From an uncultured Alphaproteobacteria bacterium (GTDB lineage Bacteria > Pseudomonadota > Alphaproteobacteria > RF32 > CAG-239): a stretch of 64,000 nt of DNA. Every line of letters begins with the position of its first letter. Positions within the stretch are counted from its first letter, which is position 1. Of this stretch, positions 4,027 to 64,000 are shown one piece after another. The translations under genes were made by a program, and so were the position numbers. The DNA is taken from positions 2,839 through 66,838 of the forward strand of contig CAKQLF010000006.1 of assembly GCA_934254585.1 (NCBI GenBank), in the 5' to 3' direction. The notes beneath the pieces were generated by a model. The model was given only the letters and a program-made list of their open reading frames with translations, was not told the origin of the DNA and did no database searches.

Positions 4027-4731
4027 ATGATTAGATTATTTTTAGTTATCTTGATGGTTTTAGTATTTAACTTTAACGCTTCGGCTCAAATCAGGTTCTA
4101 TAGAATATCAGACACAAATATAACTCAAGAAAAATATTTGTTTGGTGATGATAAAATACGTCTGACCGCAAGTAGTGAAAGTTATGATAGCTACACAATT
4201 GTTGCCAAATATACGTTTTATGGAACTTTAATAGATGTAACCATAGAAGGTTATCGTTCCTACAAGCAAACTTACCTTGGTAAAAATACAAAACTACCGC
4301 TACAAGAATACGCAAAAGGACAGTTGTTGTATTCAGATGGCAAAGTTTGCGAAATTGTCAACAAACGCGAACGCTCACTTTTGAAAATAAAAGATGTTAA
4401 GTTATGTGCTGTTTATGAAGATTATTCTATTAGTCAGGGACTTAATTGGACTAACTCTCAGTTCGAGAATAATATAAACCCTAACTATTATCAACTATCT
4501 AAGTGGGAAACCGCATATAGCTACATCGAAAACAACAAAAAATATGAAAAGAATGTTGTCTTTGGAAGCTATGGCACAAAAGCAACTATTTCCGTTTTGG
4601 ACGTAACCTTTACCAATGGACACAAAGTCAGATTACATATTTACAATGACCCTGAATGGGCTAATGCCAAACCTAGAATGTTGGTTGAGCGTTTCAAAGT
4701 TCGTCAGATAACTGTCTATAAACTTAAATAG
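4027..4731 (+). CDS. Hypothetical secreted protein with an N-terminal signal peptide
   Basis: 234-aa ORF. N-terminus MIRLFLVILMVLVFNFNASAQ looks like a signal peptide. It has its own promoter and a downstream intrinsic terminator. No recognisable domain. Confidence 0.6.
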   Translation: MIRLFLVILMVLVFNFNASAQIRFYRISDTNITQEKYLFGDDKIRLTASSESYDSYTIVAKYTFYGTLIDVTIEGYRSYKQTYLGKNTKLPLQEYAKGQLLYSDGKVCEIVNKRERSLLKIKDVKLCAVYEDYSISQGLNWTNSQFENNINPNYYQLSKWETAYSYIENNKKYEKNVVFGSYGTKATISVLDVTFTNGHKVRLHIYNDPEWANAKPRMLVERFKVRQITVYKLK

Positions 4732-4742
4732 ACACCTAAAAA

Positions 4743-4772
4743 GCCTCACTGCACAGTGGGGCTTTTTGCTTT
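4743..4772 (+). terminator. Rho-independent terminator: GCCTCACTGCACAGTGGGGC hairpin plus T-run
   Basis: Stem-loop followed by TTTTTGCTTT directly after the 4731 stop. A nearly identical copy occurs at 6244..6274. Confidence 0.7.
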
Positions 4773-6243: not shown

Positions 6244-6274
6244 GCCTCACTGCATAGTGGGGCTTTTTGCTTTT
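6244..6274 (+). terminator. Rho-independent terminator, a near-identical copy of the 4743 element
   Basis: GCCTCACTGCATAGTGGGGC followed by TTTTTGCTTTT. Confidence 0.7.
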
Positions 6275-6283
6275 AATTTTTTG

Positions 6284-6454
6284 TTGATTTATTAAGAAGA
6301 GTTTGCTAAGGTTTGGGTATTGAATAATTCACCTGTTTTATGAGGAAAGAAAGATGAAAAATAAGCAATCAAAAGGTCTCTCTCTCTCTCTGCAAATCCT
6401 AACTGTCTGATTAAAGGCATATTTTCTGCCACTACAGACGTTTTTGCAAGTTTT
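6284..6454 (+). promoter_or_regulatory. Pilin-family 5' cassette, copy 1: a degenerate promoter (TTGATT-17-TAAGGT), GAGGAAAG RBS plus ATG, (CT)7, and a hairpin/T-run
   Basis: About 85% identical to the cassettes at 33321..33497 and 50365..50545. The -10 hexamer is TAAGGT rather than the TGcTATAAT seen in the other copies. Confidence 0.6.
6378..6391 (+). repeat. (CT)7 dinucleotide tract inside the cassette mini-ORF
   Basis: ctctctctctctct counted directly. The same position holds (CT)8 in copy 2 and (CT)7 in copy 3. Confidence 0.9.
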
Positions 6455-6796
6455 TTGAAGAATTTTAGTTGTAGAGAAACTACTCACTCACACTTCTTTA
6501 ATGTCATTAACGGGCTTGACCCGTTAATCTTGTCGCGACACACATTTTCTTCACTATTCTCAATCATTCGCGGGCACCTCTTTAGCGTCATTCGCTGGCA
6601 CAGACCAGCGAATCTAGATTGCCGGATCAGACTGTGCGTCACGTCCGGCAATGACAATAAGGTGGAGCATGTCGCGTTCGGCAATGACAGTAGATTGGGA
6701 CGATGGTTAAGAGCTGTTTGCAATTTAATAAATACCCCTCACTCGGCACTGTCGTGCCACTCTCTCCCGCACGGGGCGAGAGAGTATGGTCGTTCG

Positions 6797-7381
6797 ATGA
6801 TAGAAATGCTCGGAGTATTAGCTATAGTGGGTGTCCTTTCCGTCGGTGGTATCGCCGGCTATTCTAAGGCGATGGAAAAGTGGAGAATTAATAAGCTGAT
6901 GGAAGAATACAGTTATATGATACAAGGAATTTTAGGCCACTTAACTGAATTTCAAAAATTACCTCGCAATACCGGCCTCGTTGACGTTGGTTTAGCGATG
7001 AATTTTATCCCGTCAAATTGGAAAAAAATAAATCCATTACTCGCTTATGACACTTTCGGAAATGTGGTTAAACCTTATGCCAGAGATAAGCGCGTTGTCA
7101 TTGACTTTTATTTGGGAGGCTTTTCAGACGGACAAAAATCTAAAGGGTTTTCGCCCAGGATATGCGCCGCCATAATGAAAGATCTGGTCAAACCTTTACA
7201 TTCATCTTTAACCTACGCTTGGATATTTCGTGGTGGATTTGTTGTAACCGACCACTTTCGAGGCGACACACGTTGCACCTCCAATGTTACTTGTTTAAGA
7301 GACATCACTCCAGATGACATTAACCGAGTCTGCAACTTGTGTGACGGGGAAAGACAATGTTCCATTACAATTGAATTTTAA
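6797..7381 (+). CDS. Type IV pilin-like protein, copy 1. Start unresolved: 6797 is the only in-frame ATG and the frame is open from 6365
   Basis: GRSMIEMLGVLAIVGVLSVGGIAGYSKAM aligns with the prepilin N-terminal motif G-FTLIELMIVVAIIGILAA, with E at +5 and AIIG conserved. The Cys-rich C-terminus resembles a pilin D-region. It is a paralog of 33875, 50648 and 63150. The copy-2/4 GTG start position reads GAG here, so no equivalent start exists. Confidence 0.6.
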   Translation: MIEMLGVLAIVGVLSVGGIAGYSKAMEKWRINKLMEEYSYMIQGILGHLTEFQKLPRNTGLVDVGLAMNFIPSNWKKINPLLAYDTFGNVVKPYARDKRVVIDFYLGGFSDGQKSKGFSPRICAAIMKDLVKPLHSSLTYAWIFRGGFVVTDHFRGDTRCTSNVTCLRDITPDDINRVCNLCDGERQCSITIEF

Positions 7382-33320: not shown

Positions 33321-33497
33321 TTGATTTATTAAAAAGTATTTGCTATAATCATGGTGTTTAATAATTAACTATTTTTATGAGGAAAGAAAGATGAAAAATA
33401 AGCTTAGCAAAGGTCTCTCTCTCTCTCTCTGCAAATCCTAAATGTCTGATTAAAGGCATATTTTCTGCCGCTACAGACGTTTTTGCAAGTTTTTTCA
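33321..33497 (+). promoter_or_regulatory. Pilin-family 5' cassette, copy 2
   Basis: TTGATT at 33321-33326, a 17-nt spacer, then the extended -10 TGcTATAAT at 33341-33349. GAGGAAAG RBS with ATG at 33391. (CT)8 at 33415-33430. GTCTG..GGCA..UGCC..CAGAC hairpin followed by GTTTTTGCAAGTTTTTT. Confidence 0.65.
33415..33430 (+). repeat. (CT)8 tract, one unit longer than in copies 1 and 3
   Basis: Counted directly as ctctctctctctctct. Confidence 0.9.
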
Positions 33498-33829
33498 GAA
33501 AAAATGATGTATGCGAGAATAACAAGCACAGCACGAAACTGGCAGGCGGCACAAAGCAAGCAATTCTAGCACCAGTCATTCTAAGCCCTGTGCCTAGAAT
33601 CTTGTTGCAACAAGGTACTAACCTAGTCAATAAATTTGCCTTATTATTACATAAGTGTCGGTTCGCACAAGATTCTCGGGACAAGCCCGAGAATGGCGGT
33701 AGCTGGAGGTGTTGGCTTATTATTTGTTGCTCGTTTTTTAATCACCACTCACCCGACACTACCATGTCGACCGATAAGCCATCAAAGGGATTGGGTGTCG
33801 TGCGTCAATACGCCGCACTTTTGGAACGA

Positions 33830-33849
33830 CGTGTACAGAGTAGTACACG
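33830..33849 (+). promoter_or_regulatory. Perfect 7-bp inverted repeat CGTGTAC-N6-GTACACG, about 25 nt upstream of the GTG start
   Basis: The same inverted repeat occurs twice upstream of copy 4 (63775..63795 and 63889..63908). Confidence 0.5.
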
Positions 33850-33874
33850 AGCGCAAAAATTCCTAGCAGATGGC

Positions 33875-34567
33875 GTGCAGTACGGGAGAAGTATGATTGA
33901 AATGTTAGGCGTTCTGGCCATCATCGGTGTTTTGAGCGTTGCCGGAATCGCCGGTTATTCCAAGGCGATGACTAAGTGGAAAATCAACAAATCCATTGAA
34001 CAAATAGAGCAAATTACCCACAACACATTCACAACTTTTGCCAACCAAAAGGACTTTAGGTCTATATATTCTTCTGACGAAGATGGTATAAACCTTTTTA
34101 AATCTTTAGGCATAATCTCCGAGGATATGATTGTTGATGGTCAGCTAAAAAATTCATTTGGCGGGGATTTAAAACTGTATGCTGGCACATTTAATAGTAG
34201 TTATCTAACTCATTCAGGCGAAAAATATTTTTCACTTGAATACTGGAATATACCACGCGAAGCCTGTATGGCTTTGGGTTCCCTAGATTGGGCTAAAGGT
34301 TCTGATACTGTAATAGGTGTAGGAATCTCACCTAATCGTGATAATGTAATGATAGATCCTACTGAGTGTTGGCTTCTTAATTATCTCACCCTGGATTATC
34401 GCGACGGAGGCTGGTTAGTGGTTTGCAATAATGGTGTTCCAGATGAAGAGTATGGAGAAACGGAAGCTGATAGGATACCTCTGCCAATTCCGCTTGATAT
34501 TGTGGCCGAACATTGTAAATGCAAAGATAACGATTGTTATTTTGGCGTGGCCTTCACCGATAAATAA
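33875..34567 (+). CDS. Type IV pilin-like protein, copy 2. GTG start giving leader MQYG; the frame is open back to 33395
   Basis: QYGRSMIEMLGVLAIIGVLSVAGIAGYSKAM prepilin-type N-terminal helix. C-terminal Cys pairs (CKCKDNDC). Its 5' region is nearly identical to that of copy 4. Confidence 0.65.
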   Translation: MQYGRSMIEMLGVLAIIGVLSVAGIAGYSKAMTKWKINKSIEQIEQITHNTFTTFANQKDFRSIYSSDEDGINLFKSLGIISEDMIVDGQLKNSFGGDLKLYAGTFNSSYLTHSGEKYFSLEYWNIPREACMALGSLDWAKGSDTVIGVGISPNRDNVMIDPTECWLLNYLTLDYRDGGWLVVCNNGVPDEEYGETEADRIPLPIPLDIVAEHCKCKDNDCYFGVAFTDK

Positions 34568-50364: not shown

Positions 50365-50545
50365 TTGATTTGTTAAGAAGTGCTTGCTATAATCAAGGTG
50401 TTTAATAGTTCACCTAATTTTATGAGGAAAGAAAGATGAAAAATAAGCAATCAAAAGGTCTCTCTCTCTCTCTGCAAATCCTAAATGTCTGATTAAAGGC
50501 ACATTTTCTGCTGCTACAGACGTTTTTACGAGTTTTTACAGAAAA
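50365..50545 (+). promoter_or_regulatory. Pilin-family 5' cassette, copy 3
   Basis: TTGATT at 50365-50370, a 17-nt spacer, then TGcTATAAT at 50385-50393. RBS with ATG at 50436. (CT)7 at 50460-50473. Hairpin followed by GTTTTTACGAGTTTTTAC. Confidence 0.65.
50460..50473 (+). repeat. (CT)7 tract
   Basis: Counted directly. Confidence 0.9.
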
Positions 50546-50647
50546 AATGATATATTAAAAAACCATCAACTCAGCGACGATTATACAGACTCACCCCATG
50601 CGGAAGATGTCACTGGATTGCTTCGCTATGCTCGCAATGACAGTAAG

Positions 50648-51253
50648 GTGCAGTGTGGACGAAGTATGATAGAAATGCTTGGCGTTCTGGCCATAATCGG
50701 CGTTCTGTCTGTCGGCGGTATTGCCGGTTATTCCAAGGCAATGATGAAATTCAAAACCAATCAAATTGCCGACCAAGTATCCACTATCGTAACTAATATC
50801 AAAACACTATACGCTCAGCAGAAAAACTACGAGGGGCTGAATAATGCTTCTGCTGTATCAATGGGAATTATACCGGACAAATTAGGCTCTGATTTAACCC
50901 ATCCATTTGGCGGAAATGTAGGCGTTTATTCAGATTATGGTATAAACACATTCTTTATTGAATATAAAGAGTTACCAAAAGAGGCTTGTATAAGTTTGGC
51001 AACTAATGACTGGGGCGCAAGTATTTCATCCGGTTTAGTTGCTATGGCTGTTAGCACTTATAGTACTTACATTCCTCCAATCTTAAACAAAATGTATTTA
51101 GGTTGCCAGGGGGAAGAACAATATTGGGGACGAGCTTATATAGCTTGCCCTGGTGGTTCGGTTCTGTCTGTTCCGATGAGTCCGGAAAAAGCCTCCGCCG
51201 CTTGTGCTTGTGATAAGGGAAATACTTGTTCGGTTGGTTGGATGTATCACTAA
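50648..51253 (+). CDS. Type IV pilin-like protein, copy 3. GTG start giving leader MQCG; an alternative TTG at 50618; the frame is open back to 50447
   Basis: CGRSMIEMLGVLAIIGVLSVGGIAGYSKAM. The alpha1 extension QVSTIVTNIKTLYAQQKNYEGL is shared with copy 4. C-terminal Cys cluster. Confidence 0.65.
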   Translation: MQCGRSMIEMLGVLAIIGVLSVGGIAGYSKAMMKFKTNQIADQVSTIVTNIKTLYAQQKNYEGLNNASAVSMGIIPDKLGSDLTHPFGGNVGVYSDYGINTFFIEYKELPKEACISLATNDWGASISSGLVAMAVSTYSTYIPPILNKMYLGCQGEEQYWGRAYIACPGGSVLSVPMSPEKASAACACDKGNTCSVGWMYH

Positions 51254-63116: not shown

Positions 63117-63151
63117 CGTAAAAGGCGGAAGTAAAATAACTTCCGCTTTTT
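63117..63151. terminator. Bidirectional terminator: GCGGAAG-taaaataa-CTTCCGC plus T5
   Basis: Lies between the convergent ugd and pilin copy 4. Confidence 0.6.
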
Positions 63152-63749
63152 ATCTGAAGAAAAGTCCCATACAAACGGTGCCATCTTGTTGAGCTCTATT
63201 GCAGTATTTGTTGGCCATATCAAAACTTATGATATTATTTCCGCCTTCAGCACAAACAAAATAAGCACCCTTTATTTCTATTTTTCCGGAACAACCTTGT
63301 CCGGTTTGCTTTATTCCTGCAGCTCCATTCAAAAAATTATGAGCGAGAACAATAGATATGCCGTACAAACCATTAGCATTGCCACCCCACTGTTGGGTGG
63401 TTAAAGCCAAGCATTGTCTTGCAGTCAGTCCGCAAATGCGTAAACCGAATAAGGCTCCATCTTCAGAAGCTCTTAATCGTACATCGGTATTTTTCCCCAA
63501 TGGCAAATTCCAATTGTTTTCCGGATACACACCGGCTTGTAATGCGGTTGAATCAGACAAACCTTCATACGATTTTTGCTGCATATAAAGCGTTTGCACA
63601 TTAGTGGCTATTTGTGTCAGATAATCAATAGTTTTATCTATTTTCCACTTTTCCATCGCTTTTGAATAGCCGGAGATTCCGCCGACGGAGAGAACAGCGA
63701 TTATGGCGAGAACGCCGAGCATTTCTATCATACTTCTCCCATACTGCAC
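63150..63749 (-). CDS. Type IV pilin-like protein, copy 4. GTG start at 63749 giving leader MQYG; the frame stays open upstream to beyond the window end
   Basis: QYGRSMIEMLGVLAIIAVLSVGGISGYSKAM. The alpha1 extension is shared with copy 3. C-terminal Cys residues are present. Its 5' cassette would lie beyond position 64000. Confidence 0.65.
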   Translation of the reverse strand: MQYGRSMIEMLGVLAIIAVLSVGGISGYSKAMEKWKIDKTIDYLTQIATNVQTLYMQQKSYEGLSDSTALQAGVYPENNWNLPLGKNTDVRLRASEDGALFGLRICGLTARQCLALTTQQWGGNANGLYGISIVLAHNFLNGAAGIKQTGQGCSGKIEIKGAYFVCAEGGNNIISFDMANKYCNRAQQDGTVCMGLFFR

Positions 63750-63774
63750 GCCATCTGCTAGGAATTTTCTCGCT

Positions 63775-63908
63775 CGTGTACTTTTTTTGTACACGTCGCT
63801 TAAAAATCCCGTCGCATCTGACGCACATTGCGGAAGAAGATTTCTAATATGTTTTGTCTGTTTGGTTACTGCTCGCGCTTTTCTCACTCGTGTACTACTC
63901 TGTACACG
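63775..63908 (-). promoter_or_regulatory. Two copies of the inverted repeat CGTGTAC-N6/7-GTACACG upstream of pilin copy 4
   Basis: 63775..63795 has an A7 spacer and 63889..63908 has spacer agagta. It is the same operator-like inverted repeat as at 33830..33849. Confidence 0.5.
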
Positions 63909-64000
63909 TCGTTCTAAAAGTGCGGCGTATTGACGCACGACATCCAATCCCTTGAATGTGATTGTATTTTTCTTTCTATAATCAATCACCCTCTCAACAT

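Follow-up and report, generated by a model that had tools for sequence, protein, structure and literature searches.

We examined a 64,000-nt stretch of contig CAKQLF010000006.1 from an uncultured gut alphaproteobacterium (hereafter the window), and in particular a 55-nt element at 33443-33497 that follows a (CT)8 dinucleotide tract and contains a hairpin and two runs of T. With good confidence, these 55 nt are protein-coding leader sequence of a translationally phase-switched pilin gene that would operate much as the opa genes of Neisseria do. Slipped-strand changes in the dinucleotide tract would switch expression of the pilin at the level of translation: with a number of CT units divisible by three, the ATG ahead of the tract would be in frame with the pilin, and with seven or eight units translation would terminate early. 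The frame logic, the natural ON alleles and the tract-length polymorphism at an orthologous locus are the parts of this explanation that were observed directly. An earlier note on this DNA had proposed that the hairpin and T-run form a translation-coupled attenuator, and had offered as its alternative that the element is part of the coding leader when the tract has an ON length. The attenuator reading was not supported; the frame evidence and the natural ON alleles bear out the alternative.

The tract length sets the reading frame of the pilin gene

The element belongs to a cassette found in three copies in the window. In order, the cassette comprises a promoter, a ribosome-binding site (RBS), a start reading ATG AAA AAT AAG ..., a GGT codon, the (CT)n tract, and a conserved module of about 26 codons, A-N-P-K-C-L-I-K-G-I-F-S-A-A-T-D-V-F-A-S-F-F-R-K-N-D, of which the hairpin occupies codons 5-16. 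The tract starts 24 nt after the ATG, behind codon 8, and is contained within the short cassette open reading frame (ORF). The features of copy 2, which carries the flagged element, and of the other pilin loci are as follows.

33321-33349, plus strand: promoter of cassette copy 2, TTGATT and TATAAT separated by a 17-nt spacer with TG (10/12, extended -10)
33380-33393, plus strand: RBS AGGAAAGAAAG and leader ATG (33391-33393) of copy 2; 27-mer identical in the three copies
33415-33430, plus strand: (CT)8 tract of copy 2, the putative phase switch, at an OFF length; ON lengths are 6, 9, 12 and so on
33439-33441, plus strand: TAA, stop of the 16-residue OFF-frame mini-ORF of copy 2
33444-33478, plus strand: flagged hairpin of copy 2, by fold and translation the ON-frame codons (C)LIKGIFSAATD of the conserved leader module
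33480-33495, plus strand: two T-runs of copy 2, in the ON frame GTT TTT (Val-Phe) and AGT TTT TTC (Ser-Phe-Phe)
33431-33883, plus strand: leader of copy 2 in the post-tract frame, 151 codons free of stops as far as the Gly of G|RSMIE
33884-34567 including the stop, plus strand: type IVb pilin-like body of copy 2, GRSMIEMLGVLAIIGVLS...
6354-7381, plus strand: copy 1, with ATG at 6354, (CT)7 at 6378-6391, OFF-frame TGA at 6408-6410, hairpin at 6405-6439, G|RSMIE at 6788 and stop at 7381
6392-6787, plus strand: post-tract leader of copy 1
50436-51253, plus strand: copy 3, with ATG at 50436, (CT)7 at 50460-50473, OFF-frame TGA at 50490-50492, hairpin at 50487-50521, G|RSMIE at 50657 and stop at 51253
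50474-50656, plus strand: post-tract leader of copy 3
63150-64000, minus strand: fourth pilin paralogue, whose leader meets no stop before the edge of the window

A tract of 6, 9 or 12 CT units puts the cassette ATG in the frame of the type IVb pilin G|RSMIEMLGVLAIIGVLS. With n = 7 or 8, the lengths found in the three window copies, the translated product is only 18 or 16 residues long. As with Opa-like contingency genes, a full-length product is obtained from one tract length class only. When the tracts were set in silico to (CT)6/(CT)9, single ORFs of 341/343 (copy 1), 390/392 (copy 2) and 271/273 (copy 3) residues resulted, each reading from the ATG through the hairpin and a variable spacer into the pilin G|RSMIEMLGVLAI. 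No in-frame ATG was present between the tract and G|RSMIE in window copies 1 and 3.

A genome scan returned more than 553 relatives in metagenome-assembled genomes of uncultured gut Alphaproteobacteria from human and ruminant sources. Many of these paralogues have ordinary leaders of 6-11 residues, and in others a (CT)n tract lies hundreds of nt upstream. The 25-mer spanning the RBS and ATG matched 83 metagenome stretches; tract lengths were counted in the 64 cassettes having at least 100 nt after the tract, and 51 unique post-tract sequences were aligned without gaps. The post-tract frame runs for 54-303 codons into G|RSMIE in 51/53 determinable related cassettes. This frame contained no stop in the 6,712 codons of the 51 unique leaders, versus 355 and 563 stops in the two alternative frames. 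Only 6/51 leaders had, 3-40 codons ahead of the cleavage Gly, an internal ATG preceded by a Shine-Dalgarno sequence, and the pilin would therefore depend on the cassette ATG.

Alleles with ON lengths occur naturally. Native ORFs of 268-343 residues were found in four copies with (CT)6. Of more than 4,000 protein homologues the best 120 were inspected, and 13 of these begin with MKNK..GLSLS(LS)nANP, corresponding to n = 6, 9, 12 or longer. One locus, L164, has the same flanking genes as copy 2 (those for a CoA-transferase, MnmA and SSB) and cassette DNA identical to it, hairpin included, except that its tract is (CT)6, exactly two CT units fewer than the (CT)8 of copy 2. Tract length thus differs between alleles of a single locus, and the (CT)6 allele is called as a 493-residue gene. 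Because natural ON alleles contain the hairpin sequence within the called ORF, that sequence should be translated there. A second pair, L091 (n = 7) and L120 (n = 8), was compared without flanks and agreed in the 78 nt that follow the tract and in the lengths of leader and ORF.

Of the 64 cassettes, 44 had seven CT units, 15 had eight, four had six (ON) and one had four. The pilin would be OFF in 93% of assembly alleles, a distribution that would fit bet-hedging. In every cassette type, both OFF frames run into a stop 1-7 codons from the tract, at 33431-33441 in copy 2 and at the equivalent positions of other cassettes. In cassettes reading G(T/C)AAATCCTAAA, TCC TAA ends one OFF frame and the other is ended by TAA (GTAAAT variants) or TGA (CTGATT). 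These stops near the tract may be selected 'ambush' stops.

The putatively switched gene encodes a type IVb pilin-like protein

A class III signal, with Gly at -1, Glu at +5 and a hydrophobic alpha1-N helix, was present in all four window paralogues as G|RSMIEMLGVLAIIGVLSVGGIAGYSKAM. The copy 3 protein matched the Pfam families Bundlin (47.7 bits) and PilS (PilS_N; 43.6 bits), both above cut-off; copy 2 gave weak Pfam matches only and copy 1 none. An AlphaFold2 model of copy 3 had a mean predicted local distance difference test score (pLDDT) of 78, exceeding 85 in the globular part. In this model residues 1-30 form a low-confidence helix and residues 31-62 are disordered, followed by a 50-residue alpha1 helix. 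A Foldseek search with the model returned the type IVb pilins CofA, TcpA and PilS at a probability of 1.00.

The window proteins resemble the type IVb pilins TcpA, CofA, PilS and bundlin in the G|x4E cleavage motif, the hydrophobic alpha1-N helix, the Bundlin/PilS_N matches, the predicted fold, and a leader that exceeds the type IVa one in length. Known type IVb pilin leaders are about 15-30 residues long, however, whereas those described here comprise 54-303 codons after the tract plus 12-14 before it. Also unlike the known proteins are an Arg after the cleavage site, the many paralogues per genome, and the lack of assembly genes adjoining the scanned loci: no pilus-assembly families were detected in the scanned ORFs flanking the pilin loci, whose neighbors are housekeeping genes (the dcw cluster, CoA-transferase, MnmA, SSB, an ABC transporter and LemA/DUF3137). 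Prepilin peptidase would remove the long leader at G|RSMIE.

The flagged hairpin probably lies within leader codons

The 35-nt element GTCTGATTAAAGGCAYATTTTCTGCYRCTACAGAC occurs three times in the window, at 6405-6439, 33444-33478 and 50487-50521. The three copies are paralogues of one cassette and therefore represent one event rather than three. In all three, the sequence itself confirmed the arrangement GUCUG..GGCA-loop-UGCC..CAGAC followed by GUUUUUGCAAGUUUUUU that the earlier note had described. Its coordinates for the mini-ORF stops, which are in frame with the ATGs at 6354, 33391 and 50436, were likewise correct: the TGA codons at 6408-6410 and 50490-50492 fall inside the left arm, and the TAA of copy 2 ends 2 nt before the stem. 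On the 3' side of the element in copy 2, five T residues lie at 33480-33484 and six at 33490-33495. The Phe codon of the first T-run (alignment columns 52-54) encodes Phe in all cassettes except four that have CTT (Leu). We propose that the hairpin would be a by-product of the codons used in this lineage (TGT CTG ... ACA GAC) and not a conserved RNA element. Any drop of mRNA in OFF cells would then reflect generic uncoupling of transcription and translation, through Rho or decay, and not the hairpin.

Several observations weigh against this coding interpretation. The module is weakly constrained as a peptide, with a ratio of nonsynonymous to synonymous polymorphism (pN/pS) of 0.73-0.89 and about equal variability at the three codon positions. 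The excess of third-position variability expected of a leader module was not found in the codon-position analysis; the coding case consequently rests on the openness of the frame and on the ON alleles, not on purifying selection. Given such weak peptide constraint, something else must account for the conserved nucleotides of the module, whether gene conversion among cassettes or a role at the RNA or DNA level. To our knowledge, leaders of 60-300 residues far exceed those of other prepilins, and we infer translation of the long leaders from conservation of the frame. A weaker, register-shifted hairpin of 4+4 bp (columns 16-19:42-45, CUGA/UCAG plus GGCN/NGCC) is present in 82-90% of LIK-type alignment cells and exceeds all 500 column shuffles. 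Finally, there is a slight chance, judged from sequence, that transcription terminates at the T-run.

Possible gene conversion and the conservation of the module

One explanation of the module's nucleotide conservation is concerted evolution. Gene conversion between pilin loci would be anchored by homology in two blocks, one reaching from the promoter to the module and the other being GRSMIE...YSKAM, and any hairpin would be incidental. This explanation is compatible with the coding-leader interpretation, and in its full form we regard it as a real possibility. The three codon positions are equally conserved, with pN/pS close to 1; the cassettes are dispersed among housekeeping genes, and many metagenome contigs break within the cassette. 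Locus L118 is a mosaic in which the pre-tract sequence and the GCCACT variant of copy 1 are joined to the downstream sequence of copy 2, with n = 7 where the window has 8. The L118 mosaic could, however, also reflect strain divergence. Gene conversion among cassettes probably underlies the nucleotide conservation of the module. The L118 mosaic, together with contig ends lying inside the cassette, suggests both gene conversion and assembly breakage at the repeat.

Palindromes in the leader spacers

Palindromes of one family, with arms of 9 bp, a 5-nt loop and the consensus ATTCTNGGN-N5-NCCNAGAAT, recur in the leader spacers of the window and of many loci among L001-L163. Those in the window, all outside the flagged element, are listed here.

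33672-33694, plus strand: perfect 9-bp palindrome ATTCTCGGG-acaag-CCCGAGAAT in the copy 2 spacer
33579-33601: further spacer palindrome, with 1 mismatch
6506-6528, 6590-6613 and 6618-6652: further spacer palindromes

At three variable positions the arms were Watson-Crick paired in 27, 35 and 34 of 41 members, versus 13.7, 17.0 and 11.8 expected if the arms were independent, the members having been ascertained by the left arm only. All four pair types occurred at one position. The palindromes thus show real covariation, unlike the flagged hairpin. Translation of the palindromes uses two different frames, giving ILG.VPRI and DSRDKPEN, and never meets a stop. Over all loci, perfect 9-bp palindromes were about 6-fold denser in leaders than elsewhere, in a count that was not strand-corrected. 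The possibility that they are genome-wide repeats resembling repetitive extragenic palindromic (REP) sequences or miniature inverted-repeat transposable elements (MITEs) was tentatively rejected, as the two motifs searched for were found only in pilin leaders within the 64 kb; the common palindromes elsewhere belong to a different, terminator-like family.

These features raise the alternative that the concept of attenuation is right but applies to the spacer palindromes, with the whole leader acting as an RNA sensor of translation. We consider this unlikely, and no T-run was found behind the palindrome examples in the window. If it were true, ribosomes would melt the palindromes in ON cells, and in OFF cells the palindromes would fold and could lead to decay, pausing or termination, so that mRNA level would be tied to tract phase across a multi-gene pilin repertoire.

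Conservation of the hairpin as RNA

A further alternative to the coding-leader interpretation is that the structure in its alternative register has a role at the RNA level, for example in transcript stability or in the pacing of early elongation just past the slippery tract. In its favor, the alternative register is kept in 86% of alignment cells, the pair at 25:39 passes from GC through GU to AU, no column shuffle matches the observed value, and synonymous diversity is slightly lower in the hairpin codons than downstream (0.20 vs 0.30). The shuffle control, however, is permissive for closely related sequences even where no structure exists, and its inputs were close paralogues. The inner helix of the shifted hairpin moreover consists of a conserved Gly codon paired with a conserved Ala codon. 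Individual relatives fold at -5 to -7 kcal/mol with a mean z score of -0.9, and VNPKHSISERF-type cassettes at -3.8 kcal/mol or weaker; the structure is absent from both the VNPKHSISERF-type and the LIKD-type cassettes. RNAalifold, applied to the 51 unique cassettes, recovered no hairpin over the flagged region and gave a consensus energy of -0.11 kcal/mol. We therefore regard an RNA-level role as highly unlikely.

The outer helix of the hairpin as it was first described is less widespread still. It is paired in 53.7% of alignment cells, and its pairs 16:46 and 18:44 are formed in only 4/51 and 12/51 cassettes, so that these two pairs appear essentially limited to the lineage of the window. When folded with 55 nt of context, many relatives engage the bases immediately 5' of the T-run in different pairings.

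The hairpin as a terminator

The attenuator reading was that the hairpin and T-run work as a phase-variable attenuator like that of pil1 in Streptococcus gallolyticus, in which the place where the ribosome stops would set the formation of an intrinsic terminator and OFF lengths would be transcriptionally silent. It has a working precedent that joins a repeat-containing leader ORF to a terminator (PMC3894217), and in the lineage of the window the U-tract is suitably placed, with the CAGAC of each copy followed by one G and then UUUUU. Upon folding of the 5' leader with ViennaRNA, the structure claimed earlier did prove to be the minimum free energy fold, and the 35-mer alone gave a free energy of -9.2 kcal/mol (z score -3.07). 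The terminator-like quality attributed to it was not borne out. The stem consists of 5 bp and 4 bp split by a 6x4 internal loop of 10 nt, with an apical loop of 7 nt, and the 5-bp outer stem encloses 25 nt, so that no uninterrupted G+C-rich stem closes directly on the U-tract. With tails included, the three copies had free energies of -10.7, -9.7 and -8.8 kcal/mol (z scores of -1.2, -1.1 and -0.7), and in a leader context of 107-109 nt the z scores were -1.6, -0.55 and +0.25.

The regions 12-40 nt upstream of each T5 run in the window were folded with the closing pair enforced, and for 35-40 of the 698 runs (about 5%) the upstream hairpin was of equal or greater stability. A consensus terminator scan around copy 2 did not call the flagged element, and Rfam searches, made at the gathering threshold for the whole window and at E values up to 5 for the cassette region, returned only a tRNA and a chance match to a microRNA family. 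Hairpins just after long ORFs in the same window, that is, gene-end terminators, have 8-14 uninterrupted bp, loops of 4-8 nt and free energies of -11 to -20 kcal/mol; one example, GCCUCACUGCAUAGUGGGGC with U5 behind it, occupies 6244-6263 immediately ahead of cassette copy 1. The flagged element shares with such canonical Rho-independent terminators a hairpin and a T-run, but differs in having 5+4 pairs around a 10-nt internal loop. A near-identical terminator hairpin, GCCUCACUGCA(C/U)AGUGGGGC with a T-run, is found at both 4743-4762 and 6244-6263, behind ORFs that end at 4731 and 6231.

The arrangement of the leader also differs from that of an attenuator. The outer stem is missing in most homologous cassettes, and in the type most frequent among relatives 3 nt separate the end of the alternative stem from GUUUUU. 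The T-runs are conserved Val-Phe and Phe codons. In most loci the pilin has no RBS and start of its own downstream of the hairpin. The OFF-frame stops lie 2 nt before the left arm or inside it and the ON frame reads through, so that a ribosome would cover the left arm in all frames. In pil1 a ribosome so placed corresponds to the antiterminated state, and here no frame would free the hairpin selectively. The idea that ribosome position on the mini-ORF controls the terminator between ON and OFF hence fails at the stops, since both are at the left arm. With the weak hairpin, the outer stem that is not conserved, the coding T-runs and the placement of the OFF stops, silencing of OFF phases by a translation-coupled intrinsic attenuator is very improbable.

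Promoters and other features of the cassettes

The promoters of copies 1 and 3 lie at the same position as that of copy 2, at 6284-6312 (-10 TAAGGT) and 50365-50393 (-10 TATAAT), and the cassette at L165 has TAGACT as its -10. Cassettes of related species have the promoter TTGACT-N18-TAGAAT at about -67, the same distance from the ATG. Judging from the differences among -10 hexamers, promoter strength may differ among cassettes. As the leader of the fourth paralogue is open at the window edge, its cassette presumably lies beyond base 64000. This leader has in common with copy 2 a ...STRA.KFLADGVQYG module.

The leaders as a group are extraordinarily long (54-303 codons after the tract) and are composed of shuffled short modules such as RPANLDCRI.SGND, GFLSDVYK.STRA.KFLADGVQ and LVNKFALLLHKC. 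Many homologues, among P0003-P0120, begin with other N-termini (MLKSMNFLRGKSRG..., MKSIFLNKISNIVSRF... and MFKSIEFFKGKSRGEG...) that have no SL repeat but have spacer modules in common with the leaders described here. These N-termini may be start modules that are not phase-variable, or they may be starts placed by the gene caller within OFF alleles.

Discussion

The closest known parallel to the system is found in the opa genes of Neisseria. Stern et al. are said to have placed the opa repeat in the leader-peptide coding region in 1986. A gonococcal strain has 11 dispersed opa paralogues (PMC5320596; PMC11868660). From this analogy, multiple dispersed paralogues with a pyrimidine repeat early in the ORF would work like opa. 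In both systems, surface-protein paralogues are dispersed and switched independently by the number of pyrimidine-rich repeats (CTTCT in opa) near the 5' end of the ORF, and most copies are OFF at any time. The differences are that the repeat here is the dinucleotide (CT)n, typically with 6-8 units and with 9, 12 and longer also seen, whereas that of opa is a pentamer; that the repeat would govern a type IVb pilin and not an outer-membrane beta-barrel; that a prepilin leader of 60-300 residues stands in place of a Sec signal peptide; and that the host is an uncultured gut alphaproteobacterium.

The resemblance to pil1 of S. gallolyticus is more limited. There too a repeat lies in a short 5' ORF before pilus genes, with a stem-loop downstream, and the idea of control by ribosome position is common to both. 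The pil1 leader ORF is separate, its stem-loop has a free energy of -18.7 kcal/mol, and in the silent state translation stops 39 bp upstream; in the active states it stops within or after the hairpin, which is antiterminated because the ribosome footprint of about 30 nt masks it (PMC3894217). In the window, by contrast, the leader is fused to the pilin where pilA has its own RBS and ATG, the interrupted stem-loop reaches only -8.8 to -10.7 kcal/mol, about half of the pil1 value, and both non-productive frames stop at the left arm while the productive frame reads through. The pil1 pilus is also sortase-dependent. As an attenuator, the element would only repeat a mechanism already shown in S. 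gallolyticus.

We found no prior description of this system in gut Alphaproteobacteria in the literature covered, which left most subscription journals outside. Gene callers shorten or miss such genes, as illustrated by a 100%-identical database entry that begins at an internal Met, and assemblies break at the cassette. Read as the coding leader of a phase-switched pilin, the element provides a clear and checkable case of Opa-style contingency switching in uncultured gut Alphaproteobacteria of humans and ruminants. Promoter, RBS, ATG, (CT)n and module would together form a portable cassette that drives many dispersed type IVb pilin paralogues, mostly OFF in the assemblies, and the very long, palindrome-studded leaders are the part of the system that deserves separate study.

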